From contig JBAXKC010000004.1 of the NCBI GenBank assembly GCA_037137535.1, positions 1-64,000 of the forward strand: a stretch of 64,000 nucleotides of DNA, given 5' to 3'. Of this stretch, positions 3,613 through 58,648 are shown in pieces. Each line of letters opens with the position of its first letter. The stretch's first letter is position 1. Position numbers and translations under genes: made by a program. Source of the stretch: a bacterium. Lineage in GTDB: Bacteria > Cyanobacteriota > Vampirovibrionia > Gastranaerophilales > JBAXKC01. The notes under the pieces were generated by a model. That model was not told where the DNA came from, did no database searches, and saw only the letters and a program-made list of their open reading frames with translations.

Positions 3613-4679
3613 GGCGAATTCGGGCTTAAGATGCAACACATATAGAGACTTGTTGTAATTTATAAAATTTTTGATTTGGTGTTTTATACCCTAATACTTT
3701 CATAGGACGATTATTAATCCAATCTTCAACGTATTGAACTTGTTCATCTGATATTTTATCAAAGTCAGTTCCTTTTGGGAAAAATCTTCTGATTAAGGTG
3801 TTTAAATTTTCAATAGTACCTTTCTCCCAAGCGTGATAAGGCTTACAAAAGAACGATTTCACCTTCAAGTTTTCATTTACTTTTTCGTGCCAGCAAAACT
3901 CGCACCCATTGTCATAAGTTATTGTTTTAGCTATTTTAATAATGTTATTTTTATTTAATGCGTACACAATCGCATTAGACGCTTGCTCGGCAGTTTTCTG
4001 GGCAAGCTTTTTTATTTTAATCATTCTTGTAGCTCTGTCTGCAATAACAAGAAGGGCTGATTTAGAGCCTCTGCAGGAAACAACAGTATCTGCCTCAAAA
4101 TGTCCTAATTCTTCTCTTTTATTTGCTTCTATGGGTCTGAAATCAATATCTATTCTGTTTGGGATTAAAGTTCTTTTGCCTTTACGTCTTGATTGAGGTT
4201 TTCTTCCTAAGTGCTTTCTTGTTAAATACTTTGACAAATGGCTATTACCCTTGTAGATAAAGTCATATATTGCATCTTTACCTACTTTGATTGCAATATC
4301 TTCAAGCATCGTTACTGAAATTATTTCAGGCGACCAGCCAAGTTTAAGCTTTTCTATTATGTATTCTTTAACTTTAGGTTCATCAGTTTTTCTTGTTCTT
4401 CGAGTATTTAATTTATTCTTACGGATATTTTCAATTGTACTAACAGCAAAATATCGGTTTTTAACAATAACGGACGTATCTTTTTTAAATTCTCTACTTA
4501 TTGTGCTTGGACTTCTTCCTAGTTCTTTTGCTATTTTTCTTTTTGAAAAATTATGAGAACTTAAAACGGCAATCTGTTCTCTTTCTTCGGAGGTTAACTG
4601 TTTAAAACTATTTCTCACTTTGCTACTCCTTTCGCTTTCTTATTTTAGCAAAGTGTTGCATTTTATTTCAGAATTCGCC
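3613..4679 (-). mobile_element. IS30-family insertion sequence, apparently intact
   Basis: 27-bp imperfect terminal IRs (GGCGAATTC...ATGCAACAC, 22/27 match) at 3613-3639 and 4653-4679; AGA direct repeat on both flanks (3610-3612, 4680-4682); internal transposase. Confidence 0.92.
3626..4618 (-). CDS. IS30-family DDE transposase
   Basis: N-terminal HTH (IAKELGRSPSTISRE), WSPE, GHFEADT, TYDNGCEF, WEKGTIEN, NNRPMKVLGYKTP motifs; GTG start with AAGGAG RBS. Confidence 0.95.
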   Translation of the reverse strand: MRNSFKQLTSEEREQIAVLSSHNFSKRKIAKELGRSPSTISREFKKDTSVIVKNRYFAVSTIENIRKNKLNTRRTRKTDEPKVKEYIIEKLKLGWSPEIISVTMLEDIAIKVGKDAIYDFIYKGNSHLSKYLTRKHLGRKPQSRRKGKRTLIPNRIDIDFRPIEANKREELGHFEADTVVSCRGSKSALLVIADRATRMIKIKKLAQKTAEQASNAIVYALNKNNIIKIAKTITYDNGCEFCWHEKVNENLKVKSFFCKPYHAWEKGTIENLNTLIRRFFPKGTDFDKISDEQVQYVEDWINNRPMKVLGYKTPNQKFYKLQQVSICVAS

Positions 4680-4706
4680 AGAATCGGAGGGATAAAGATA
4701 AAATTT

Positions 4707-6737
4707 TTATTTTTTCTGCAAGAACTTTGTTATTGCTTGATTAATAGAACTATTTACATCAGGAACATTAACTTGTTTTTGTTCAGGCTGAATATTTTTA
4801 TTTTTATATAATTTCTTTGTGTAATTAATATTAAACCAAGGCAAGAACCAACCTAAGAATCCTGAAACAGCTACAATACTTACAGCTTCCGGCAAACTTT
4901 TAAGAGCTTCAGCAAATTTCACAAGATGATTACCTTCTTTGCTTAGTTCAGCCGTAACTTTATCTAATAATGGTTTTAATTTTTCATCCGAATGAGCTTT
5001 TTTGATTAACGAGATAATTTGTTCATTACTTGACGGTAACAATAAATCAGCCTTACCTGCTTTAAATGGTGCGGTTAAAAAGCCAAATACTCCATTATTG
5101 ATTTTTTCACCTTTACTGCCTAACTTTTCAGCTATTTCATTAAAGGCCTTTTTTGAATCATCTGTTAAAAAATCAAATATTTTATGTAAATTTCCACCAT
5201 GTTTTGAAATATTTTCACTAAAATCAACCAATCCATTTTTATACTTGCCTACTCCTGAATAAATATCGTTTATATTCTCAAAAGACATAGGTTGAACACC
5301 TTTTTTAGGTCTTAAATGATCAGTTATAAAAGCAAAACCTTCTGATAATTTGGAAGAAATAGGAAAGCCTGTAACTTTTCTTGAAATGGTGGAAGTAATA
5401 TTTCTAAGAATAGGAATAGCAAAAACAATTGTTGATAGTCCGCTAAAGTCTCTTGTTGCGACTTCCCTTCTTTCATCGGCATTTCTAGCTTGAAGAAGCC
5501 TCGCACCTAACATAATACCAAGCGTATAAAACGCAAGAATCGCATGTGGTGCATTTTGCTTATTAAAATCTAAATATCTGAAAAATTTACTTCCTCCCCC
5601 TGAAAAAGAAACTTGTTTCTTTTGAGAAGAATTAGCTTCTGAAGGCTTATTTGTGGCTGTATTAATTTCAAGCTTTTTAAATGCTCCCAAATTAATTGCA
5701 TTTGACTGACGGATGGGAACATTAGCTTTATTCTGCTGAGTAACTAGAACTTGGTTGTCCGCAGATTTTGTTAAACCGTCAATGCCTGGGAATTGCTTAT
5801 TTCTTTTATACATAATGGGAATTATGTATAGAAAACTTGCAGTTGCAAGAACAGTAGCAAAAAAGTTAAATTTTCGCCCGTTTGATTTTATATTATGAAG
5901 ATTTTCAATAACACCAGAAAGTTTTTCTTTAGATGAAGTTTTTGCTGTTTCAGCCACCTTTTCAACAATATCTTTTGAATAATTATGCAAATCTTCAACT
6001 AAAGTTCCTATTGTTTTTGTAAAGGTATTATTTGTTAATGTATCTTTTAAAGAAACCTCATGAGAATTATTAAGATGCAAACCATGAGCCTTATTCAAAT
6101 CGGAAACGATCTCCACTAGTTCTTTATTAAGCAGAGCAACTTTATTTTTATCTTTTTCTGTTTCCAATAATCCAATATTTTTTAGAATTTTACTTATTTC
6201 TTCATTTATATTAACTGGAGATTTAAGCTCAACTTTCTTGTGTGCCTCAAAGGCTTCTTGGAAGACATTTGTATAAAACTTATCTTTAAGTTGTCTACTA
6301 TTTTCAAAGTGTGGATCTTTAGCTACATGATTTTTAAAAGAAGCCGTTAATGAATCTAAAGTCTGATGCTGAATGTTTGATGCAGAACCAAACAGTTTCC
6401 CCGATAAAGCAATCAAACCCATTGGAATAAAAAACATACTAGGACCTGAAAATATTTCTCTAATCAGTTCTTCAAACCCTGATTTATAATTAGGATGTCC
6501 CAATTCTTCTTTATTTCTGTTAAAAGCTTGATATGTACGTGGAAGAACCATTCCAATAGTATCTACAAAAAGAAAATCTGCTAATACTCCACCATGCTCA
6601 ATCCATTTTATGCCGCCTGTAACAGCATCAGTGGCGGCAGTTGCTAGATTACCCTTAAAGGGAATCACCTGAGAGAAGTTAGGCTGTTGTTTCAGAGAAT
6701 ATTGTCTGTTATAAGTATTTTGAGTTAAATTAATCAT
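4707..6737 (-). CDS. Hypothetical lineage-specific membrane protein, paralogue of 1449..3314
   Basis: 676-aa ORF with hydrophobic segments and N-terminal IPFKG motif; GAAAGG RBS directly after a leader terminator. Confidence 0.75.
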   Translation of the reverse strand: MINLTQNTYNRQYSLKQQPNFSQVIPFKGNLATAATDAVTGGIKWIEHGGVLADFLFVDTIGMVLPRTYQAFNRNKEELGHPNYKSGFEELIREIFSGPSMFFIPMGLIALSGKLFGSASNIQHQTLDSLTASFKNHVAKDPHFENSRQLKDKFYTNVFQEAFEAHKKVELKSPVNINEEISKILKNIGLLETEKDKNKVALLNKELVEIVSDLNKAHGLHLNNSHEVSLKDTLTNNTFTKTIGTLVEDLHNYSKDIVEKVAETAKTSSKEKLSGVIENLHNIKSNGRKFNFFATVLATASFLYIIPIMYKRNKQFPGIDGLTKSADNQVLVTQQNKANVPIRQSNAINLGAFKKLEINTATNKPSEANSSQKKQVSFSGGGSKFFRYLDFNKQNAPHAILAFYTLGIMLGARLLQARNADERREVATRDFSGLSTIVFAIPILRNITSTISRKVTGFPISSKLSEGFAFITDHLRPKKGVQPMSFENINDIYSGVGKYKNGLVDFSENISKHGGNLHKIFDFLTDDSKKAFNEIAEKLGSKGEKINNGVFGFLTAPFKAGKADLLLPSSNEQIISLIKKAHSDEKLKPLLDKVTAELSKEGNHLVKFAEALKSLPEAVSIVAVSGFLGWFLPWFNINYTKKLYKNKNIQPEQKQVNVPDVNSSINQAITKFLQKK

Positions 6738-6757
6738 TTTTTAAAACCTTTCATAAT

Positions 6758-6795
6758 AAAAACCTGTCGATATCTATGTGATCCGACAGGTTTTT
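6758..6795 (-). terminator. Attenuator terminator in the 5' leader of the 676-aa gene
   Basis: Minus strand AAAAACCTGTCG...CGACAGGTTTTTATT, ending about 20 nt before the ATG. Confidence 0.8.
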
Positions 6796-6828
6796 TATAA
6801 TCTAAATTAACAAGAATAATAAAAAGTA

Positions 6829-6915
6829 TCAGACCAAAACATGCATCATGCAGCAACACATCATGAACATCATTAACATGTTTTTGCAAAAATTGATTGG
6901 CTGATTTGTTTTCAT
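6829..6915 (-). CDS. Met/Cys-rich leader peptide MKTNQPINFCKNMLMMFMMCCCMMHVLV (28 aa)
   Basis: Translated by hand; GAGGA RBS; 8 Met and 4 Cys codons, mostly clustered; followed by antiterminator/terminator; TTGACA at 7001-7006. Confidence 0.8.
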   Translation of the reverse strand: MKTNQPINFCKNMLMMFMMCCCMMHVLV

Positions 6916-7023
6916 TATTATTTCCTCATTAATTTTGTGGCTTGTAAAATATCATTCGGCTTACCTAACTTTATCTATTATTTATATAAAATAATATTAT
7001 TGTCAATAGACTAAAAAAATTTA

Positions 7024-8430
7024 TTATTTTACTAAATTATTTTTCAAATATTCATTAATTTTCACCGATGCAGCATTATTTATAATTGTAGTATTTCCAT
7101 GGCTGATTAAATCAAATCTTAATGACGGATCATAAGTTAAAGAATTCATAATATAATCGCTTGCATTCTCGTCAACAGAAGTTGAACAATATTCTTGGAC
7201 ATAAGAATCCGCCAAAGTTAAACCCTTTCCATTAATTAAAGGTTCTTCAAGTTTATCCGGCAAATTTTCTGAGGTAATCAGTTCAGAATTATTGATTTCA
7301 TCTTTTATTGATTGAAGTAAAATCACTCCGTCTTTAGGCTTTAGAGTTTTTAAGAAACTTGCAACATTAGGCTTATTATTTTCAGCAGGTAATTTTACAT
7401 CATTGCTTATAAGCACTTTTTCAATATCCACATTTTTAACAGATTGATATAATTTTCTCAAAGACTTAGAAGGCAGAGTTTCTTCGGAAAATTTATCAGA
7501 GGTTATAGGCTCAACATAATCAGGATCGATACTTAAAATATCAGGATTTTTTGCTTTTAACTTTTCACCTTCACTAATTGCAACTCTTCCTAATAATTCA
7601 CCCAATGATATCTCTTTAGAATCCTCTTCCTCCACTTCCTTTAAAAGAACAGATTTATCAAATTTATTAACATTATTGATTTGCTCAGAAATCTTAGCCA
7701 CCTCTTTTCTAGCCGTTTTAATCACTTCTTTTCTAAATAAAAATTTATCCGCATCATGTATAACATTATTAAAATATTCTTTGGTTTCGTCATTCTTTTT
7801 AAATGTATCAAATGTTCTTGCTAATAATGTTTTAGCATTATTGAATTTACCTTCCTCTGACCAATCTTTAGCTATGTTGTAGTGATAATCGTCAATATGA
7901 CCATCTTTATTAAAACGCTTCAATAACAATATCGCAACGTCATTATCTCTATCAACAACAGCTTTTAAAGAAGAAGCCGTTTTAATAAGATCTGCATGCT
8001 TTAATGGATCATATTTCTGATTTGGTCCTATTGGAATAGTTCGTTGCCCGACATATTGTGATACATTTTCAATTAATTTAATACTTTTTTCTTCACCAAT
8101 TTTTTCAAAGAATTCTGAAAAAGTCGGTGTTTTAGACTTATTATTAAGTTGAGAATTATAAGTGTTATCTGTTGACTTAAAGAGATTATCCAATGATTTT
8201 CTGTCACTGTTAGTTATTTTTTTTGGAGCTTTAATCGCTTCATTTGCATAATCAAATACAGGGGAATTCTGAATAATATCATAAACTCGTCTTTGTTTAT
8301 GTGTTAAATTTTCTACTATTTTGCTGTTTACCGTTTGAATATTCTCATTATCCTGCACTTCAACCTTATTTGATTTAAAAGTTATTGTCGGGACATTCTG
8401 TTTTACATTGTAATTAAATTTAGTATTCAT
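7024..8430 (-). CDS. Hypothetical soluble protein with N-terminal ITFKS motif
   Basis: 468-aa ORF, AGGAG RBS, no recognisable domain. Confidence 0.7.
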   Translation of the reverse strand: MNTKFNYNVKQNVPTITFKSNKVEVQDNENIQTVNSKIVENLTHKQRRVYDIIQNSPVFDYANEAIKAPKKITNSDRKSLDNLFKSTDNTYNSQLNNKSKTPTFSEFFEKIGEEKSIKLIENVSQYVGQRTIPIGPNQKYDPLKHADLIKTASSLKAVVDRDNDVAILLLKRFNKDGHIDDYHYNIAKDWSEEGKFNNAKTLLARTFDTFKKNDETKEYFNNVIHDADKFLFRKEVIKTARKEVAKISEQINNVNKFDKSVLLKEVEEEDSKEISLGELLGRVAISEGEKLKAKNPDILSIDPDYVEPITSDKFSEETLPSKSLRKLYQSVKNVDIEKVLISNDVKLPAENNKPNVASFLKTLKPKDGVILLQSIKDEINNSELITSENLPDKLEEPLINGKGLTLADSYVQEYCSTSVDENASDYIMNSLTYDPSLRFDLISHGNTTIINNAASVKINEYLKNNLVK

Positions 8431-8655
8431 GATCTTTTCTCCTAATTTCGTTTAATCCTCATCATAGTTAATGATTAACTACGGCTCTTCTTCAAAAAAT
8501 GGTTCTACACTAAAAACATATACGCCTTTCAAGGCAAGTATTTATAAAAGTAAATTTAACTTACAAAGTTAAAGGTTTTTTTAATATAAGCTCCTTTCTT
8601 AAAATAATTTACACTAGCCGTAAATATTTCGGCAAACAGCACTTTGTGTTCAAAT

Positions 8656-8688
8656 AAAAACTGCCTAATTAAAATACAGGCAGTTTTT
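8656..8688 (-). terminator. Attenuator terminator downstream of the second leader peptide
   Basis: Minus strand AAAAACTGCCTG-tattttaat-TAGGCAGTTTTTATTT. Confidence 0.8.
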
Positions 8689-8725
8689 TAAAGTTTATAA
8701 ATTCTAAAATAAAAAACAATGCCTG

Positions 8726-8788
8726 CTAACACATGCAAAAGCACATGCAGCACATATTTAGAGATTTTTTTTGTTTTAGAACGATCAT
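8726..8788 (-). CDS. Cys/Met-rich leader peptide MIVLKQKKSLNMCCMCFCMC (20 aa)
   Basis: Translated by hand; AGGA RBS; last 9 codons are MCCMCFCMC; 14-bp antiterminator starts right after the TAG; TTGACA at 8860-8865. Confidence 0.82.
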   Translation of the reverse strand: MIVLKQKKSLNMCCMCFCMC

Positions 8789-8900
8789 ATTAATTAATCC
8801 TAAAAATTATTATGTTAAAAGAATTTATTCTTATCTCATTTAAAAACAAATATCTATGTTGTCAAGAAATTATTTTTTATCTTATAAAACTTCACAACAA

Positions 8901-8928
8901 AAAAGCGATCCTATTACAGATCGCTTTT
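8901..8928 (-). terminator. Terminator after glucan phosphorylase
   Basis: AAAAGCGATC-N8-GATCGCTTTT with T-tract on the minus strand. Confidence 0.75.
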
Positions 8929-8947
8929 AAGGTTTTAGATATTAAAT

Positions 8948-10648
8948 CTATTTTGAACCAGATAACTCAAGTTTATTCATGTTGTTTACACTAGCTGTAT
9001 CAACATTAGAAACATTTAAAGCATCTTCGTTCTTTTGATTGCCATGAGCAATTGGATTATAAAGTCTGTTGTAATACTCAACAACCATTCTATCAGAGTT
9101 GAAATAACCTGCAGCTGTTCTTACAGCTTTAGTCATTAAGTTAGCCCAACCATCTTTATCATCATAGTATGTTGGTATTAATTTGTTTTCAATAATATCC
9201 ATCATGCATTCATAATCTTTCCAATGACGCTCTTCCCAAGGCATTTCGTCATCAAGACCTTCATACATAAGGTTATATCCGTTAATATCATCAAATGTAC
9301 CTTCAACTGACCAACCATCAAAAGTTGATAAGTGTAAAGCACCGTTCATGTTAGCTGACATACCTGATGTACCTGAAGCTTCAAATGGTCTTAACGGTGT
9401 ATTAAGCCATACGTCAGAACCTTTTTTCATAAGAGCGCTTAATTCAAGCTCATAATTGAAAAGAACTGCAACGTTAGGAAGCTCATCAGATTGCTTAAGG
9501 ATATTGTTGAACATATCACGACCTAAAGTATCAGCAGGGTGGAATTTACCAGCAAATACGATTTGAAGTTTGTTCTCTCTAAGAAGTTTGCTGATTCTTT
9601 CTCTATCCATAAGAATTAACCAAGCTCTCTTATAGTCAGCAAATCTTCTAGCCCAGGTAATTGTAAGAACGTTCGGATCAAATCTTTTACCTGTTTTGTT
9701 AGCAATATGCTTAAATAAATCTTTTTTCATATCTACTTTAGCATCTAACATTTGTTCGTTAGTTTTTGCATTTTTAATTCTGTCATCTTGCCAGTACTGT
9801 AAGTTAACAGCGTTGGTAATAGCAGTAATAGGGCATCTGTTATCAACATGTTCCCACATTTTGTTAGCTACTAAACCATGAAGCTGAGATACAGCATTTG
9901 ATAAACGGCTCATTCTTAAAGCAGCAACTGTAAGTGAGAAGTTTTCACCGCCACCAAGTTCAATAGCTCTTTCTCTTGAGCAACCTGCAAAGAATCCTGC
10001 ATCATTAAGAAGATCAATCCAATGAACTTCGTTACCTGCCGCAACAGGAGTGTGAGTTGTGAATACAGTTTTTTCTTTAACTTTTTCAAGATCTCCGTCA
10101 AACTTTCTAAGAAGTTCAAAAGCAGCAGGAAGAGCATGACCTTCATTCATGTGAATAAGATCATAATTATAGCCAACAGCGTCTAATACTCTTACACCAG
10201 CAACACCAAGAACAACTTCCTGACTTACTCTTGTTTTCTCATCAGCATCATATAATCTGTGAGTAATGTTTCTAAGTTCAGGAGGGTTTTCAGGAATGTC
10301 TGTTGATAAGAAATAAACAGGAACAGTTCCAAAAGTTTCAGGCTCTAATCTTAAAGCTTTAACTTTTACTGTACGTCCGAAAATTTCAACATCAACGATT
10401 ACACCAGTATCTGTTAGAAAATCGTATGTTTTTTTAACGTAAGCAATTTCAACATTGCCGTCGTTACCGATTCTCTGATCATAGTAGCCGTATGTCCAAA
10501 GCATACAAACGCCTACCATTGGCAATCCTAAATATCCTGCGGATTGCATGTGGCTACCAGCCAAAAATCCTAAACCACCTGAATAGGTACTTAGGGACTG
10601 ATCTATAGCCATTTCCATTGAAAAGTATGCTACATTTGGTAATGTCAT
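8948..10648 (-). CDS. glgP: Alpha-glucan (glycogen/starch) phosphorylase, short form
   Basis: YFSME, YSGGLGFLAG, HMNEGH, FTTHTP, ARRFADYKR, EASGTSGM motifs. Confidence 0.92.
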   Translation of the reverse strand: MTLPNVAYFSMEMAIDQSLSTYSGGLGFLAGSHMQSAGYLGLPMVGVCMLWTYGYYDQRIGNDGNVEIAYVKKTYDFLTDTGVIVDVEIFGRTVKVKALRLEPETFGTVPVYFLSTDIPENPPELRNITHRLYDADEKTRVSQEVVLGVAGVRVLDAVGYNYDLIHMNEGHALPAAFELLRKFDGDLEKVKEKTVFTTHTPVAAGNEVHWIDLLNDAGFFAGCSRERAIELGGGENFSLTVAALRMSRLSNAVSQLHGLVANKMWEHVDNRCPITAITNAVNLQYWQDDRIKNAKTNEQMLDAKVDMKKDLFKHIANKTGKRFDPNVLTITWARRFADYKRAWLILMDRERISKLLRENKLQIVFAGKFHPADTLGRDMFNNILKQSDELPNVAVLFNYELELSALMKKGSDVWLNTPLRPFEASGTSGMSANMNGALHLSTFDGWSVEGTFDDINGYNLMYEGLDDEMPWEERHWKDYECMMDIIENKLIPTYYDDKDGWANLMTKAVRTAAGYFNSDRMVVEYYNRLYNPIAHGNQKNEDALNVSNVDTASVNNMNKLELSGSK

Positions 10649-11014
10649 AATCTCTCTTAACCTTTTAACCTTATAACCTATAATGAATACTTTCGTATAA
10701 ATTAAATAAAACTAACAAATTATCTTTTTTATATCCATTGCGTATATTCTACAAATAACACAAGTAATTCAAAAATCAAATTTTTTTAATTTTATAATAA
10801 ATTTAAACATGAAATAAATTAAATACAAGTAATTTAAAATCAAAGAATAACCCACTTAATAAAAGAATTTTATTATATTTCTCTATTAAATTAACAATTT
10901 TATTATAACAAATTCTTCTATATAAACAAAATTGATTTTTTTATTTACGCAATTCATACGAGCTTTTTGCGTACTTTATACACTTTAAATCCTTGGTTTT
11001 CTTATATTTAAAAG

Positions 11015-11050
11015 AAAGTATTCGCCATTAGATTTAACAACGAATACTTT
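11015..11050 (-). terminator. Probable terminator after argF
   Basis: AAAGTATTCG...CGAATACTTT inverted repeat next to the stop. Confidence 0.55.
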
Positions 11051-43711: not shown

Positions 43712-45394
43712 TTAAGCGCTTAAATTTATTGGCTTATGTGCTTCTTCAACCATTAATTCAAGTTCAACAATACCGGTATTTTGATCAACTTTTACAACTT
43801 TAAATTGAGAATTTCTAGGTAATAACAACTCACTTTCTGAAATTCCTTTTACGCCTGTTGACTCAATATCTAAAGCTTTTGCACCTTTAGGAACTTTAAT
43901 TTTCAGAGAATAACCTTGCCACTCATCACCATAGCCATTAAATGCCATAATTTCTTTTGGGTCATATGATGTTGAGGTGTATCCGTTGTCAGTATAAATC
44001 ATACCTTCCTTTAATTCATATGGATATTTATACTCAACTCCTCCAGCTTCAGGGAATACCTGTTTTTTAGCTACCCCTCTATATACAACTACATCTTGTG
44101 GACACTCTGATCGTTCAATTACTTTATCTAAATTATTAACGATATTATCTAATTGTTCTAATTTTTTTGCAGGTTGAGTTAAAATATCCTCAGCATCAAA
44201 AGCCCCTGTTTTTCTAGCATATGGATTAATATCTTGGTAATAATCACCTTTATACTTAGTCATAGCATCTAGTTCTTGTTTACTAAAGCTATCTTTATAC
44301 TGTTCTTTAAACTGTTGGTTCAAATTAGCGCGTTCCGATTTATTTAAAGGTTTATATCCATTTTGTTCACTGGAAAGATCTGAAATAAAGTCTTCTCTTC
44401 GTTTACGCATAGCCTCAGACTTAGCAATACGCTTAGCTTCATCCGCTTTTTGCTTAGCTTCGATTTCAGCCTTTTGTTTGGCTTCAATTTCTGCTTTTTG
44501 CTTAGCTTCAATTTCAGCCTTTTGTTTGGCTTCAATTTCTGCTTTTTGCTTAGCTTCGATTTCAGCCTTTTGCTTGGCTTTAATTTCTGCTTTTTGCTTA
44601 GCTTCGATTTCAGCCTTTTGCTTGGCTTCAATTTCTGCTTTTTGCTTAGCTTCGATTTCAGCCTTTTGCTTGGCTTCAACTTCTTTATTAACAGGTTTCG
44701 GATCTTCTACTTTAGTCTTTTTATTAATAAAAGGAAGTTGCGCTTTTAAATTTATCCATGCGCTACCATCTTTAAAGGCATTAAAAGATTTTGCCAAACT
44801 TGAAGGAGTTTCTTTAAAGGTTTGAATAACTGCTTCAAATGTATTCATTTTTGATACATCAGCAGCTATATTAGCTTGTTTAAGTACAGTTTTTGCGCCT
44901 GCAATAGATGGGATTAATGTAGTTGCAGCTGCTCCAATATCATAAAAGGCCTTTTCAACGTCATCGCCATCTTTTGCAGTTGCAATTTTATAAGCTGCCG
45001 TTCCCGCCTGAAAAACTCCTGTTGCAATACCTGCTGCGGCCATAAACGGAAGAATTGCCCCACCTGTTGCAACAGTTAAAGCTCCTGCGGCTGCCATCAT
45101 GCCGGCACCCATTACAAAATTTTGCGGACTACTAAACATTGAAGTAATAGGAGAAATTAAACCTTTTCCAAAATTTAACGCAGCTTCGCCGACATCAAAT
45201 TTTTTATTATTAGAAGAATTTATTTCTTCTTTAGATTCAGTATTATTTACAAAAATATCACTTGGCAGTTCTAAATTATTCATGTTAATTGTTTTTATAT
45301 TTTGCTCAGCAAAAGGGTTATAAGGCTGTGGTTGTATCACAGCCTTTTTATTAGAATTATAAGCGTTTAAAAGATTATTATTAAACGAAATCAT
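43712..45394 (-). CDS. ADP-ribosyltransferase toxin (VIP2/C2-like R-S-E class) with Ala/Gly-rich hydrophobic N-domain and repeat stalk
   Basis: Y..IN..., VYRG, YTSTS, E-S-E-LLLPRN.F catalytic motifs. Confidence 0.85.
   Translation of the reverse strand: MISFNNNLLNAYNSNKKAVIQPQPYNPFAEQNIKTINMNNLELPSDIFVNNTESKEEINSSNNKKFDVGEAALNFGKGLISPITSMFSSPQNFVMGAGMMAAAGALTVATGGAILPFMAAAGIATGVFQAGTAAYKIATAKDGDDVEKAFYDIGAAATTLIPSIAGAKTVLKQANIAADVSKMNTFEAVIQTFKETPSSLAKSFNAFKDGSAWINLKAQLPFINKKTKVEDPKPVNKEVEAKQKAEIEAKQKAEIEAKQKAEIEAKQKAEIKAKQKAEIEAKQKAEIEAKQKAEIEAKQKAEIEAKQKAEIEAKQKADEAKRIAKSEAMRKRREDFISDLSSEQNGYKPLNKSERANLNQQFKEQYKDSFSKQELDAMTKYKGDYYQDINPYARKTGAFDAEDILTQPAKKLEQLDNIVNNLDKVIERSECPQDVVVYRGVAKKQVFPEAGGVEYKYPYELKEGMIYTDNGYTSTSYDPKEIMAFNGYGDEWQGYSLKIKVPKGAKALDIESTGVKGISESELLLPRNSQFKVVKVDQNTGIVELELMVEEAHKPINLSA
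44445..44684 (-). repeat. Ten tandem 24-bp coding repeats (AEIEAKQK) arranged as a 48-bp dimer
   Basis: Alternating units gctttttgcttagcttcgatttca / gccttttgyttggcttcaatttct. Confidence 0.9.
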
Positions 45395-49598: not shown

Positions 49599-50405
49599 AT
49601 GAACAAAACTGTAGAATTTATTCAAAATCAAATTAAAGAACACAATTTCAAACCCGAAACAGCAATTATTTTAGGCTCAGGCCTTGGTGATTTTGCTGAA
49701 AAAATCAACGGTGTAAGAATAAATTTTTCTGACATTCCCGGATTTGCAGCATCTTCAGTGGCAGGACATGCAGGAAAGCTAATTATAGGGGAATTATTCG
49801 GCAAACATGTTCTTGCGATGCAAGGAAGATTTCATTTTTATGAAGGTCACTCCCTTGAAAAAGTTATCTACCCTATCAGAATAATGAAACTTCTCGGAAT
49901 TAAAAACCTTATCGTTACAAACGCAGCCGGTGGTGTAAATACAGAATATAAACCCGGTGATCTTATGGTAATTAATGACCATATTAACTTCATAGGAACA
50001 AATCCATTAATCGGCAAAAACTTTGATGAATTTGGACCTAGATTCCCCGATATGTCAAAAGCATACGCTGATAGTCTGATTGAACTTGCTAACAAATCAG
50101 GTGAAAAACTTGGTATTAAATTGCAAAACGGTGTATATGCTGCTCTTACCGGACCATCATACGAAACACCTGCTGAAATAAGAATGCTTAGACTTTTAGG
50201 AGCTGATGCCGTTGGAATGTCAACTGTTCCTGAAGTTATAGCAGCTAATCACTGCGGAATGAACGTACTGGGCATTTCCTGCATAACAAACATGGCTTGT
50301 GGCATTTTAGACCAACCTTTAAACCATGAAGAAGTTATTGAAACATCAAACATGGCAAAAGCTTCTTTCATCGGGCTAATAAGTGAAGTAATAAAAAATA
50401 TTTAA
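49599..50405 (+). CDS. punA: Purine nucleoside phosphorylase (trimeric type)
   Basis: ILGSGLG, GHAG, GRFHFYEG, TNAAGG, GPSYETPAE, VGMSTVPE. Confidence 0.93.
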   Translation: MNKTVEFIQNQIKEHNFKPETAIILGSGLGDFAEKINGVRINFSDIPGFAASSVAGHAGKLIIGELFGKHVLAMQGRFHFYEGHSLEKVIYPIRIMKLLGIKNLIVTNAAGGVNTEYKPGDLMVINDHINFIGTNPLIGKNFDEFGPRFPDMSKAYADSLIELANKSGEKLGIKLQNGVYAALTGPSYETPAEIRMLRLLGADAVGMSTVPEVIAANHCGMNVLGISCITNMACGILDQPLNHEEVIETSNMAKASFIGLISEVIKNI

Positions 50406-50433
50406 GTTTTGTAAACTTATTAATATAAAATCC

Positions 50434-50460
50434 TAAAGTTTTAAGGAGAGAGGTCGATAA
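50434..50460 (+). promoter_or_regulatory. Sigma-28 (FliA/SigD)-type promoter, copy 1
   Basis: TAAA-N15-GTCGATAA. Confidence 0.7.
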
Positions 50461-50469
50461 ATAATATAT

Positions 50470-50543
50470 AGACCAAACAAATGGTCATACCCCAACCTCC
50501 TCCCCAAAGTCTGGTAGCCGCCCAAAAAGGTGGCTTTTATTTT
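50470..50543 (+). ncRNA. Candidate C-rich small RNA, copy 1
   Basis: GACCA/TGGTC 5' hairpin, CCCCAACCTCCTCCCC single strand, AGCCGCC/GGTGGCT terminator with T-tract. Confidence 0.7.
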
Positions 50544-50594
50544 GCCTTTTTTTAGACTCGCATTAAGTTTTGTTAACAAACTAAAATAAAACCC

Positions 50595-50621
50595 TAAAGT
50601 TTTTTAAAAAACTGCCGATAA
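50595..50621 (+). promoter_or_regulatory. Sigma-28-type promoter, copy 2
   Basis: TAAAGTTT...GCCGATAA with exact TAAA-N15-GCCGATAA spacing. Confidence 0.8.
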
Positions 50622-50630
50622 ATATTACAT

Positions 50631-50704
50631 AGACCAAACAAATGGTCATACCCCAACCTCCTCCCCAAAGTCTGGTAGCCGCCCAATAAGGTGGCTTTTA
50701 TTTT
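50631..50704 (+). ncRNA. Candidate C-rich small RNA, copy 2
   Basis: As copy 1, with one loop substitution. Confidence 0.7.
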
Positions 50705-50755
50705 GCCTTTTTTTAGACTCGCATTAAGTTTTGTTAACAAACTAAAATAAAACCC

Positions 50756-50782
50756 TAAAGTTTTTTAAAAAACTGCCGATAA
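50756..50782 (+). promoter_or_regulatory. Sigma-28-type promoter, copy 3
   Basis: TAAA-N15-GCCGATAA. Confidence 0.8.
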
Positions 50783-50791
50783 ATATTACAT

Positions 50792-50865
50792 AGACCAAAC
50801 AAATGGTCATACCCCAACCTCCTCCCCAAAGTCTGGTAGCCGCCCAATAAGGTGGCTTTTATTTT
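50792..50865 (+). ncRNA. Candidate C-rich small RNA, copy 3
   Basis: Identical to copy 2. Confidence 0.7.
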
Positions 50866-51046
50866 GCGTTTTTTTATACAAATATCATGCCAAATACATA
50901 GTGATTAAACTGTTTTTTACAATATAACTACTTAAATTATAGATATAAGACAAAAAAGGATATCTTGTAAAATCATGGACAATTATTTTATACAATAATT
51001 AGAGCAACTACTAATTGTTTTTAAACCAACTAATAGGAGAAAAATA

Positions 51047-55402: not shown

Positions 55403-56569
55403 ATGGAAACAAAAGAAATTTGTACTGAGATTGACTTATCAAAAAGTATTGGGATTGTAGAAACAAAATATTTTACCTATGAAGGCAAAATTAAATTTGA
55501 AAGCGGAGTTGAATTCGGGCCTATTACTATTGCCTATGAAACTTACGGAGAATTAAACAGCGAACGAAATAACACTATCATGGTATTTCACGCACTATCA
55601 GGAGACGCCCACGCAGCAGGTTATTATGAAGAAGATAAAAAACCGGGTTGGTGGGATGACATGATAGGCCCCGGGAAAGCCTTTGATACAAACAAATATT
55701 TTGTAATCTGTTCAAACTTTTTAGGTGGATGCAAAGGAACAACAGGTCCTTCTTCCATTAATCCCGAAACAGGAAAACCTTACGGAACAGACTTTCCAAT
55801 GATTACCATCGGAGATATGGTAAAATGCCAGAAAAAACTTATTGAATACTTAGAAATTCCTTCAATATTATGTGTTGCAGGTGGTTCGATGGGTGGAATG
55901 CAAGCTATGGAATGGACTGCAACCTATCCTGATATGGTTAAATCAACAATTGTAATTGCTTCAACCAGTCGACTGTCTACTCAAAGCATAGCCTTTAATG
56001 AAGTAGGAAGAAACGCAATTATTTCAGACCCAGAATGGAATAACGGAAACTATTATGAAAACACCGTACCCTCAAGGGGGCTGTCAATAGCAAGGATGAT
56101 CGGACATATTACCTATTTAAGCCAAGAATCAATGCACGAAAAATTTGGAAGAAGACTTCAAGATAAAACCCATTTAGACTTTAGTTTTGATATAGATTTT
56201 CAAGTGGAAAGCTATTTAAGACACCAAGGGAAAACCTTTGTTCAAAGGTTTGATGCTAATAGCTATCTCTATATCACAAGAGCTATGGACTATTTTGACC
56301 TTCAAGCAAAATATGGAAGTCTTGCAAAAGCCTTTAACGAATCAAACTCAAAATTCTTAGTAATTTCTTATACGTCTGACTGGTTATTCACTCCAAATCA
56401 ATCTAAAGAAATTGTAAGTGCTTTAATGAATGCGGATAAAGAAGTTTCTTATGTAAATATTGACTCTCCATACGGACATGATGCATTTTTACTTGAAGAA
56501 AAAGTTCAAACAAAGATAATTAACGGTTTTTTAAATGATATTTCATCAAAAATATTATCCGAAGTTTAG
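55403..56569 (+). CDS. metX: Homoserine O-acetyltransferase
   Basis: [42 protein letters not shown]. Confidence 0.95.
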
Positions 56570-56580
56570 GCGGTAAGAAA

Positions 56581-57219
56581 ATGAAAAAGAAAAAAATCAG
56601 CGAACATTACTTAAAATCTAAAGGCTTACATCTAAATTATTCTATAATTTCAGACCTCATCGAAAAAAATGCAAAAGTTTTAGATTTGGGTTGCGGCTCA
56701 GGCGAGCTTTTAAAACTCTTAAAAGAAAAGAAAAACATTTCGGGAAGAGGCATTGAGATTGATCAAGATAATGTAATTTCCTGCATAGAAAAAGGAATTT
56801 CAGTATTTCAGGGCGATCTTGACGAAGGATTAGCCGAATATGAAGAAAAAGCCTATGATTATGTAGTTTTAAGCCAGACATTACAATGGACGAAAAAACC
56901 TGATTATGTAATAGATGAAATGCTCAGAGTAGGGAAAAAAGGCGTTATAAGTTTTCCTAACTTTGCATACTGGCGAGTACGATGTCAGCTGTTTTTCGGA
57001 GGATTTATGCCAAAATCTAAAATGCTTCCGTTTGAATGGTTTAATACTCCAAACATTCACCTTTTAACAATTAATGATTTTAGAAAATTCTGCAAAGAAA
57101 GAAATATTAAAATTATTGATGAAAGCTATACAACCCGTGCTTGCGTAAGAAACGGATTTTTCCATAAATTATTGTCAAATATATTTGCAGAAGAGGTAAT
57201 ATTCATTGTTACAAGATAA
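56581..57219 (+). CDS. metW: Methionine biosynthesis protein MetW
   Basis: VLDLGCG.G, LSQTLQ, SFPNF..W, W..TPNIH; follows metX. Confidence 0.92.
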   Translation: MKKKKISEHYLKSKGLHLNYSIISDLIEKNAKVLDLGCGSGELLKLLKEKKNISGRGIEIDQDNVISCIEKGISVFQGDLDEGLAEYEEKAYDYVVLSQTLQWTKKPDYVIDEMLRVGKKGVISFPNFAYWRVRCQLFFGGFMPKSKMLPFEWFNTPNIHLLTINDFRKFCKERNIKIIDESYTTRACVRNGFFHKLLSNIFAEEVIFIVTR

Positions 57220-58648
57220 TAAAATAGAAATAAACAATGCTATAACAAGCATAGAAGAAGATGATGACACACAATTCAGTAAATCTCTAGGGATTTTTGA
57301 TGCAGTTGCAATTATTTCAGGCTCAATGATAGGCTCAGGTATTTTTATAGTATCTGCTGAAACTTTAAGACAGATACAATCACCTGTTCTATTACTCATT
57401 ATATGGGCTATTACAGGAATTATGAGTATAGCAGGCGGTCTTTGCTTTGGTGAGCTTGCAGTCAGATTCCCTGAAGCGGGAGGACAATATGTTTACCTTA
57501 AAAAAGCGTGGGGTAATCTTGTCGGTTTCCTTTACGGATGGACTTTTTTCCTCGTAATAGAATCAGGAGCAATAGCGGCTGTTTCTGTTGCTTTTGCCAA
57601 ATTCATAGGAAGAGTTCTACCTTTTATTTCAACTAAACACTATTTATTACATTCAAACATTATAAATATTTCATATGTCCAAGTGCTGGCAATAGCCTTA
57701 ATCTTCTTGATTACCTACATCAACATGCAGGGGGTTCAATGGGGAGCTTTAGTTCAAAAAGTATTCACAAGTACAAAAATTGTAGCGTTGGTTGCAATTC
57801 TTATTTGCGGATTGACATTAGGGCTGAACATGGACGTTATAAGACATAACTTTTTAGAAATCCCTACTTTTCCAACATTCCACATGAATATTTTCTCTGC
57901 AGTAGCAGCAGCACTTGTCGGAGCATTATTTGCGGCTGATTCTTGGAATAGCGGAACTTTCGTAGCAGCAGAAATGAAAGAGCCGACTAAAGACCTTCCT
58001 AAAGCATTATTTTGGGGCATTTTAGCGGTAGTTAGCCTTTATTTCCTCACCAATGTAATCTATTTATCAGTTTTAAACGTTGAACAAATAAAAACAGCGG
58101 CTGAAGATATAGTTGGCATAGCCCTTATGAAACAAATCTTAGGCACACCGGGAATTATTGCAACAGCAATTGTAATAGCCATTTCAGCTTTCGGAGCCGT
58201 AAACGGAATGGTTTTAACAGGCGCAAGAGTTTATTATGCAATGGCAAAAGACGGTTTATTTTTTAAAGGAATGGCAAAGCTAAATCACAAAACAGCCGTT
58301 CCACAAAATGCAATCATTGCTCAATGCATATGGGCAAGCTTTTTAACATTAAGCGGAAGTTTCTCACAATTACTTGATTATGTAATATTTGCAGCCTTAT
58401 TCTTCTATATTCTTACAGTTGGCGGCTTATTTATAATCAGAAAAAAAGACAGCGAACCGTTTGATTATAAAGGCTCTTTCTATCCGTTCTTACCTGCATT
58501 ATATTGCACATTAGCAGGATTTACGGCTGTAAACCTTTTAATATATAAGACAGAGTATTCTTTATACGGTTTATTGATTATATTAAGCGGAGTACCGATT
58601 TATTTCTTCTGGAGATACAAGAATCGTAAGAAACTTAGCACTAAATAG
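57206..58648 (+). CDS. APC-family amino acid permease (LAT/SteT-like)
   Basis: IGSGIF, ELA..FP.AGG.Y.YL, E.K.P...LP, RV.YAMA.DG; about 12 TMs. Confidence 0.9.
   Translation: MLQDNKIEINNAITSIEEDDDTQFSKSLGIFDAVAIISGSMIGSGIFIVSAETLRQIQSPVLLLIIWAITGIMSIAGGLCFGELAVRFPEAGGQYVYLKKAWGNLVGFLYGWTFFLVIESGAIAAVSVAFAKFIGRVLPFISTKHYLLHSNIINISYVQVLAIALIFLITYINMQGVQWGALVQKVFTSTKIVALVAILICGLTLGLNMDVIRHNFLEIPTFPTFHMNIFSAVAAALVGALFAADSWNSGTFVAAEMKEPTKDLPKALFWGILAVVSLYFLTNVIYLSVLNVEQIKTAAEDIVGIALMKQILGTPGIIATAIVIAISAFGAVNGMVLTGARVYYAMAKDGLFFKGMAKLNHKTAVPQNAIIAQCIWASFLTLSGSFSQLLDYVIFAALFFYILTVGGLFIIRKKDSEPFDYKGSFYPFLPALYCTLAGFTAVNLLIYKTEYSLYGLLIILSGVPIYFFWRYKNRKKLSTK

Follow-up and report, generated by a model that had tools for sequence, protein, structure and literature searches.

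A putative methionine- and cysteine-codon leader-peptide attenuator ahead of a Melainabacteria-specific protein gene in Gastranaerophilales

What decides whether RNA polymerase reaches a gene that begins just beyond an intrinsic terminator? The question is raised by the gene for a 676-amino-acid (aa) protein in a 64,000-nucleotide (nt) stretch of contig JBAXKC010000004.1 (Gastranaerophilales, assembly GCA_037137535.1), hereafter the window, in which the terminator follows a small open reading frame (ORF) dense in Met and Cys codons. A first-pass annotation of the window had proposed sulfur-amino-acid attenuation at this site and at a second leader nearby. We found the sequence elements of such a device, their rarity against chance, alternative RNA folds, and conservation in orthologous loci, and we consider it likely that the element is a trp/his-type ribosome-mediated transcription attenuator that senses the charging of Cys- and Met-tRNA.

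The stop codon of a 468-aa ORF (8430..7024) precedes the promoter-like site of this leader, and from there the parts follow one another on the minus strand:

6977..7006, minus strand: promoter-like site of the Met-weighted leader, with a -35 element TTGACA at 7006-7001, an 18-nt spacer and a -10 element AATAAT at 6982-6977
6923..6927, minus strand: Shine-Dalgarno (SD) sequence GAGGA, 7 nt 5′ of the ATG of the upstream ORF (uORF)
6829..6915, minus strand: leader uORF MKTNQPINFCKNMLMMFMMCCCMMHVLV, 28 codons plus UGA
6844..6879, minus strand: regulatory codon run MLMMFMMCCCMM, codons 13 to 24, with Met or Cys at 10 of 12 codons; the proposed stall zone, where stalling is predicted
6897..6917, minus strand: region 1, which comprises the 5′ end of the uORF with its AUG and is the partner of region 2 in the full-length fold
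6817..6837, minus strand: region 2, the 5′ strand of the antiterminator GGUCUGAUACUUUUUAU, which spans the UGA stop codon and is the partner of region 3 in the nascent RNA
6780..6798, minus strand: region 3, the terminator 5′ arm plus the preceding A-run, common to antiterminator and terminator
6758..6790, minus strand: intrinsic terminator, a hairpin at 6790-6763 (CCUGUCG.../...CGACAGG) of -12.8 kcal/mol with the U-run UUUUU at 6762-6758
4707..6737, minus strand: the controlled gene, for a 676-aa protein of a Melainabacteria-specific family with no Cys and 6 internal Met

The promoter-like site matches the promoter consensus at 11 of 12 positions and ranks first among the 32 such sites found in 4600-9100, and the uORF encodes 8 Met, the start counted, and 4 Cys. 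The terminator hairpin starts 40 nt 3′ of the uORF stop codon, and the ATG at 6737 lies 20 nt beyond the U-run; because the interval is so short, the 676-aa gene depends on read-through. The TTGACA, the GAGGA, the 28-aa ORF with its Met and Cys counts, and the terminator about 20 nt ahead of the next ATG had all been placed on the minus strand by the first-pass annotation, and we recovered each of them at the same positions, the hairpin and its UUUUU at 6790-6758.

When the full-length leader was folded, the minimum free energy (MFE) structure, at -58.1 kcal/mol, paired region 1 (6917-6897) with region 2 (6837-6817) and formed the terminator, and a helix adjacent to the 1:2 pairing (6935-6923 with 6816-6804) covered the SD. 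A stalled ribosome was mimicked by masking the RNA as far as 13 nt 3′ of the first Cys codon in the run, on the assumption that the ribosome footprint extends about 13 nt beyond the A-site codon, and by omitting the terminator 3′ arm. The MFE of this nascent RNA paired 6835-6819 with 6798-6780 at -13.8 kcal/mol, G-U pairs included, which is the same antiterminator that the first-pass annotation had proposed. The duplex of regions 2 and 3 alone was worth -10.8 kcal/mol. An antiterminator that uses the terminator 5′ arm was obtained in all four leaders folded with the ribosome masked on the Cys run, that is, in this leader, in a Cys-weighted sister leader in the window, and in two orthologous leaders (L001 and L002) that are described below. 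Among 1,000 dinucleotide shuffles, those whose duplex of uORF-end segment and terminator 5′ arm was at least as strong numbered 23 for the Met-weighted and 18 for the Cys-weighted leader of the window, 2 for L001, and 0 for L002.

From these elements we infer ribosome stalling, termination, and a physiological signal, and we propose that they would act together as follows. Transcription would start about 55 nt before the uORF, at a predicted start site, and a ribosome would load at the SD and translate the uORF behind the advancing RNA polymerase. When the charging of Cys-tRNA and elongator Met-tRNA is high, the ribosome would reach the UGA and cover region 2, while in RNA that carries no ribosome region 1 would pair with region 2. 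With region 2 either covered or paired in this way, region 3 would be free for region 4, the terminator at 6790-6758 would form, and the transcript would end 20 nt before the 676-aa gene. When charging is low, the ribosome would stall in the run MLMMFMMCCCMM (at codons 13-22), region 2 would be left bare to pair with region 3, and polymerase would read through into the 676-aa gene.

The same design is found a second time, 1.9 kb upstream of the Met-weighted leader, where it is followed by the gene for the 468-aa protein:

8656..8865, minus strand: sister attenuator, with TTGACA at 8865-8860, SD at 8802-8798, uORF MIVLKQKKSLNMCCMCFCMC at 8788-8726, antiterminator strand at 8726-8711 and terminator at 8688-8656
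7024..8430, minus strand: the gene behind the sister attenuator, whose product is an orphan protein of 468 aa containing 1 Cys and 1 internal Met

The description of one leader as Met-weighted and the other as Cys-weighted proved correct. The first-pass annotation had also held that the two are not a recent duplication, and the leader regions indeed align no better than shuffled controls: their identity in a global nucleotide alignment was 0.79, against a shuffled mean of 0.75 and maximum of 0.83, and since the gap settings let even shuffled sequences reach 0.75, this value shows only that the leaders have no detectable relatedness and is no evidence of conservation. A terminator scan of positions 4600-9100 listed no terminator between the 468-aa gene and the Met-weighted leader, so the two attenuators stand in series. 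The Cys-weighted attenuator, unrelated in sequence, would act likewise for the 468-aa gene, and transcripts that pass it would then meet the second one. The features left unaccounted for by the proposed mechanism include why the Met-rich version governs the 676-aa gene and what role is played by a 226-nt spacer (8431-8655, minus strand) between the terminator of the Cys-weighted leader and the ATG of the 468-aa gene, which holds more hairpins, among them a terminator-like site at 8536-8523.

Could such elements have arisen by chance, from intergenic DNA that is AT-rich and happens to hold an AUG- and UGC-rich ORF beside a hairpin? The window has a G+C content of 32.6%, and short Met/Cys-rich ORFs can arise in this way, as seen in MMCCQCMGMK at L011, one of 12 homologous loci compared below. 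This small ORF (11010-11042), the sole other Met/Cys-rich one among those loci, was rejected as a leader, as it lies out of frame within a response-regulator gene. We ranked the 698 ATG-started ORFs of 8 to 80 aa on both strands of the window by the number of Met and Cys residues in their best 10-residue stretch, and the two leader uORFs took the first two places, with scores of 9 and 8 and the next best at 5. When the window was shuffled 100 times with its dinucleotides preserved, no ORF reached 7, and the maximum was a single score of 6. On the 128,000 strand-nt there are 39 hairpins of -8 kcal/mol or lower with 4 or more U immediately 3′, so that for any given point the chance of having one within about 120 nt is a few per cent. 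The fold of the Met-weighted leader beat 200 of 200 shuffles (z = -3.99), and that of the sister leader region beat 100 of 100 (z = -3.24). With the element present twice in like orientation and architecture, and kept at both orthologous loci that could be read, a chance origin is hardly credible, and we regard it as effectively refuted.

Orthologous leaders were sought by a tblastn scan of genome contigs with the 676-aa protein, which gave 12 loci (L001 to L012), three of them orthologues at 49 to 55% identity. The L003 orthologue is cut at residue 210, so that the upstream region was readable in L001 and L002 only (49% and 55% identity in the best tblastn segment). The first-pass annotation had named orthologues devoid of such a uORF as the outcome that would speak against it, and we found a Met/Cys uORF, a terminator, and an antiterminator in both. 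The uORFs (MINFITNNNCKMCCCIMRMRLAGYFCCY at 3487-3573 of L001 and MNNSIIKNTNTMNQMCCCMKRMRLAGYFCCC at 1043-1138 of L002) are SD-led and positioned as in the window, with TTGACT...TATAAT at the corresponding place, and an AGGA- or AGGG-type SD lies 7 to 11 nt 5′ of the ATG in all four leaders. The three orthologous leader peptides (window, L001, and L002) have an invariant MCCC, encoded by Cys codons that differ synonymously (TGT TGC TGC, TGC TGC TGT, and TGC TGC TGC), and outside this motif the window peptide is unrelated to the other two. The L001 and L002 peptides are nearly the same as each other over 16 residues (RMRLAGYFCC and its neighbours). All three leaders have the terminator hairpin at alignment columns 240-268, with stem sequences that differ between the window and L001/L002: a U-A pair at 242:266 in the window corresponds to C-G in the other two, and inner pairs have also changed yet are still paired, in a covariation sample of three leaders, two of them mutually close, that has low statistical power.

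The antiterminator strand of L001 and L002, GCGAUUAGCAGG, is complementary to their own terminator arm, CCCGCUAAUCGC, rather than to a shared motif, and it encodes the RMRLAG of the peptide. The conserved peptide stretch is therefore explained at the RNA level, as its codons are the antiterminator strand. Further 3′, at the end of the uORF, a second Cys cluster is present in both (FCCY at 3559-3573 of L001 and FCCC at 1121-1138 of L002), and its codons form a small hairpin across the stop codon. Divergent from the leader promoter in both loci is a gene for a DtxR-family regulator with Fe_dep_repress N- and C-terminal domains (2826-3368 of L001 and 390-926 of L002, both minus strand); no DtxR-family gene adjoins the window leaders.

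In the 450 nt upstream of each of the nine distant paralogue loci (L004 to L012; 27 to 35% identity to the 676-aa protein in the best tblastn segment), we found no Met/Cys uORF. These loci have a conserved upstream sequence of their own, and in them the 676-aa-type protein is split into two adjacent or overlapping ORFs, with an N half of about 320 to 370 aa and a C half of about 290 to 330 aa (for example, 5878-6888 and 6889-7809 in L004). The L002 contig is titled "uncultured Gammaproteobacteria" and the L007 contig "uncultured Muribaculaceae", and both encode members of an otherwise Melainabacteria-only family; the two contigs are probably mis-binned, and L002 has both the leader and the DtxR neighbour in common with L001.

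These comparisons also bear on whether the small ORFs instead encode functional Met/Cys-rich peptides (metal-binding peptides, precursors of ribosomally synthesized and posttranslationally modified peptides [RiPPs], or small membrane peptides), the hairpin being merely the end of a small gene. Peptides rich in Cys and Met can bind soft metals, the ORFs have good SD sites, and the near-identical residues of L001 and L002 would suit a conserved product. That stretch, however, falls on the RNA strand complementary to the terminator arm, and the window peptide shares only MCCC with the other two. None of the four peptides matched Pfam or NCBIfam, RiPP precursor models included, at E values up to 10, no maturase, radical-SAM, or transporter gene was found among the neighbours, and the 20 nt from the U-run to the ATG leave no room for a separate promoter. 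We therefore regard functional peptides as quite improbable and retain the attenuator.

A ribosome-dependent attenuator might also answer to a signal other than sulfur amino acids, such as translation stress, antibiotic or nascent-peptide arrest, Cys/Met oxidation, or metal status. The DtxR-family gene next to the leader promoter in L001 and L002 would fit such a signal, as would the lack of a known sulfur-metabolism role for the window targets, and the L001 and L002 peptides contain RMRL, with an Arg-Leu-Arg motif being known from antibiotic-sensing leader peptides (PMC8632094). RMRLAG, however, is in neither window leader and its codons serve as the antiterminator strand, and the Met/Cys run is the only feature common to all four peptides. 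The genes behind the leaders point the same way: as detailed below, the L001 operon holds genes for Cys synthesis, and the targets are depleted in exactly Cys and Met. Another signal is thus unlikely, though less so than a functional peptide. A SAM (S-box) riboswitch or a T-box was rejected, since Rfam gave no match at the gathering score in the 64 kb; a permissive Rfam scan of 6600-9000 returned 10 subthreshold matches to unrelated small RNA (sRNA) and snoRNA families, which we judged to be noise.

A link to sulfur amino acids that is independent of codon content comes from the L001 operon. There the leader is followed by the 598-aa orthologue (3676-5472), then, after a 2-nt gap, by a serine O-acetyltransferase (SAT)-like gene and, after a 15-nt gap, by a gene for cystathionine beta-synthase. 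The first of these enzymes is a hexapeptide acetyltransferase with 1 Cys and no internal Met whose best matches are serine O-acetyltransferase models (TIGR01172, E = 1.9e-42, 145 bits, under the cutoff of 210.65), and the second is a CBS-domain PLP enzyme that scores above the equivalog cutoff for cystathionine beta-synthase (TIGR01137, 550.7 versus 510.25 bits). In L002 the gene after the orthologue is dnaK.

The proteins behind the window leaders are themselves poor in sulfur. With the initiator excluded, the Cys-plus-Met content of the 468-aa protein is 0.43% and that of the 676-aa protein 0.89%, the two lowest values among the 53 ORFs of the window, where the next value up is 1.26% and the median contents are 0.71% for Cys and 2.03% for Met. 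Since both controlled proteins are nearly without Cys and Met, they could be made when these amino acids are scarce. Within the 676-aa family, the median Cys-plus-Met content was 1.34% in the close relatives (P0001 to P0018, 46 to 100% identical to the 676-aa protein, which is included) versus 2.67% in 149 distant members (Mann-Whitney P of ~1e-9), and it was 2.88% in the 44 full-length distant members.

A word-indexed protein search found 22 relatives of the 676-aa protein, and a profile search recovered 562 clusters (50% identity), in which fused and split forms are both common. All members are unnamed or "hypothetical", and their taxon, where known, is Melainabacteria. For the proteins of the window in general, the closest relatives that carry a name come from Candidatus Gastranaerophilales, within Melainabacteria. 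Neither the 676-aa nor the 468-aa protein, nor a 621-aa distant paralogue of the former (E = 4e-7) encoded nearby, had anything above the Pfam or NCBIfam cutoffs, and among 26 further family members none had a match above cutoff and 2 had weak subthreshold ones. AlphaFold models the 676-aa protein as all-helical (pLDDT 70.5, pTM 0.66); Foldseek against the PDB gave no usable match to the model (best E of 0.055, TM of ~0.1), and the ESM Atlas returned only Melainabacteria "hypothetical protein" clusters for this protein and nothing usable for the 468-aa one. Hydropathy gave one strong segment (292-310) and five moderate ones, so that the earlier label of membrane protein is plausible, although the segments fall short of proving it. 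The 468-aa protein had no hydrophobic segment by hydropathy, and a protein search found only itself.

Several observations weigh against the attenuator or against its tie to sulfur. The antiterminators are weaker than the terminator forms (for example, -13.8 versus -22.9 kcal/mol with the 3′ arm present), so the model needs a kinetic, cotranscriptional order of folding. The simple terminator scan of 4600-9100 listed neither attenuator hairpin, probably because one stem is bulged and the other has a 9-nt loop, which would place both outside the rules of the scan. The covariation is thin, as three orthologous leaders are all that it draws on. A ribosome stalled at the second Cys cluster of L001 or L002 would cover the antiterminator strand, so the simple model does not explain that cluster. 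As for the proteins, the orthologues of L001 and L002, with Cys-plus-Met contents of 1.84% and 1.63%, overlap the low end of the range in the leaderless split paralogues L004 to L012 (1.72 to 2.73%), and the clade-wide contrast in sulfur content is effectively one evolutionary event. The window targets have no known function, and the leader in the window is followed by no enzyme of Cys or Met metabolism; an IS30-family element lies there instead. Finally, an operon with a metX-like gene, metW, and an amino acid permease gene in the same window has neither a Met/Cys uORF nor a SAM riboswitch in its 97-nt upstream region, where a small hairpin is present. Against these stand the leader, the folds, the two orthologues, and the L001 operon, all of which support the sulfur-amino-acid attenuation first proposed; that termination depends on the amino acids is the part that we infer. 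The "regulon" of the same proposal draws on two leader loci in the window, and the metX-metW-permease operon has no such leader.

Some neighbouring features were recorded alongside. The IS30-family element (3613-4679) begins 28 nt past the stop codon of the 676-aa gene, at the place where L001 has its SAT-like and cystathionine beta-synthase genes; it is bounded by 27-nt inverted repeats (3613-3639 and 4653-4679, 81% complementarity), its transposase (4618..3626) has HTH_38 and rve domains, and the 621-aa paralogue lies beyond it. The operon with the metX-like gene (Abhydrolase_1) occupies 55403-58648 on the plus strand. At 50402-50876 (plus strand), a 161-bp unit is present in three tandem copies of 93% identity, each with a C-rich, anti-SD-like stretch CCCCAACCTCCTCCCC and each ending in a hairpin and T-run (50513-50546, 50674-50707, and 50839-50856); these look like tandem candidate small-RNA genes and have no Rfam match. 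At 43712-45394 (minus strand), a 560-aa protein has a C-terminal ADP-ribosyltransferase exoenzyme domain (PF03496, E = 2.3e-25) and repeated coding segments around 44528-44663.

Taken one step further, the sulfur-poor targets make it attractive to picture a sulfur-sparing protein set driven by the leader element. We offer, as a tentative idea that may well prove wrong, a Gastranaerophilales "sulfur ribulon" in which independent leaders would read the charging of Cys-tRNA and elongator Met-tRNA and switch on a sulfur-sparing programme. This programme would comprise orphan proteins, nearly Cys/Met-free paralogues that stand in for other members of a lineage-specific membrane protein family, and, in certain genomes, genes for Cys synthesis. 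If true, it would be the first Met-codon-based attenuator and the first case in which sulfur sparing in the proteome is placed under direct control of the ribosome rather than of a transcription factor.

Melainabacteria are a non-photosynthetic, largely uncultured sister group of Cyanobacteria, and to our knowledge almost nothing is known of their gene regulation; in the open-access literature searched, as judged from titles and the openings of abstracts, we found nothing on sulfur or cysteine regulation in Melainabacteria or Gastranaerophilales. Through the leader, a large protein family restricted to this lineage gains a first functional clue, and one of its clades seems to be part of the response to a shortage of sulfur amino acids. 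The rest of the regulon can be looked for with a simple pattern, a terminator preceded by a uORF dense in Met and Cys codons.

Leader-peptide attenuation is textbook knowledge for Trp, His, Leu, Thr, Phe, and Ile/Val, and the control of Met and Cys genes is usually attributed to riboswitches, T-boxes, or proteins. It is only recently that Cys leaders have come to light, in Actinobacteria and, before cysS, in Rhodobacterales, and no bacterial Met-codon leader attenuator was found in the open-access literature searched. A Met-weighted leader with a full set of terminator and antiterminator would therefore extend attenuation to the last major amino acid class. The element is best filed as a Met-plus-Cys leader-peptide transcription attenuator in Melainabacteria that follows a known principle: Cys leaders are already known, and what is new is the Met-weighted one, the Gastranaerophilales lineage, and the sulfur-poor, uncharacterised targets.

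The classical leader-peptide attenuators are those of the trp, his, leu, thr, phe, and ilv operons of Proteobacteria. Like them, the element has an SD-led uORF with a regulatory codon run, regions that pair 1:2, 2:3, and 3:4, and a stop codon in or next to region 2. Unlike them, it mixes Met and Cys codons, belongs to Melainabacteria/Gastranaerophilales, and in the window stands before uncharacterised sulfur-poor proteins rather than biosynthetic enzymes; Rfam leader families had no match in the window. S-box (SAM) riboswitches and Met/Cys T-boxes control termination ahead of Met and Cys genes, with the ligand or tRNA sensed directly by RNA and no uORF involved. Their physiological role would be similar, whereas here a uORF is present and an Rfam match is lacking. 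Sulfur-sparing isoforms, such as the low-sulfur phycobiliproteins of Calothrix and yeast Pdc6, are Cys/Met-depleted, induced on sulfur limitation, and controlled by transcription factors, and they can be paralogues of sulfur-richer proteins. The targets described here are likewise depleted in Cys and Met, while their proposed control is by a leader-peptide attenuator, an arrangement for sulfur-sparing proteins of which we found no description in the open-access literature searched.

Three reports of Cys leaders come closest. In Actinobacteria, cys and cbs operons are preceded by predicted Cys-codon leaders that are described as having no terminator hairpins, and Rho-dependent attenuation was suggested (PMC1262725). 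These leaders resemble ours as short ORFs with Cys-codon runs near the stop codon, ahead of cysteine-metabolism genes, with a cbs link as in L001; the hairpin with its U-run and the antiterminator set our leaders apart from them (PMC1262725). The uORFC-8-2 motif, upstream of cysS in Rhodobacterales, is a candidate ribosome-mediated attenuator that, like ours, combines conserved Cys codons in a uORF with a terminal stem and then a U-run (PMC8632094). It has two tandem Cys codons at positions 14 and 15, is described with no Met run, is alpha-proteobacterial, and controls cysteinyl-tRNA synthetase (PMC8632094). Our leaders have 3 to 6 Cys and 3 to 7 internal Met codons, are followed by genes other than cysS, and belong to Gastranaerophilales. 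The mycobacterial "Cys ribulon" consists of leaderless polycysteine short ORFs that unmask a downstream ribosome binding site and, as in the arrangement proposed here, of several independent Cys-rich short ORFs, each with its own operon, that answer to one amino acid through ribosome pausing (bioRxiv 10.1101/834739). Unlike those leaderless ORFs, the Gastranaerophilales leaders have an SD, a uORF that begins about 55 nt past the predicted start site, an intrinsic terminator, and Met codons as well as Cys codons.

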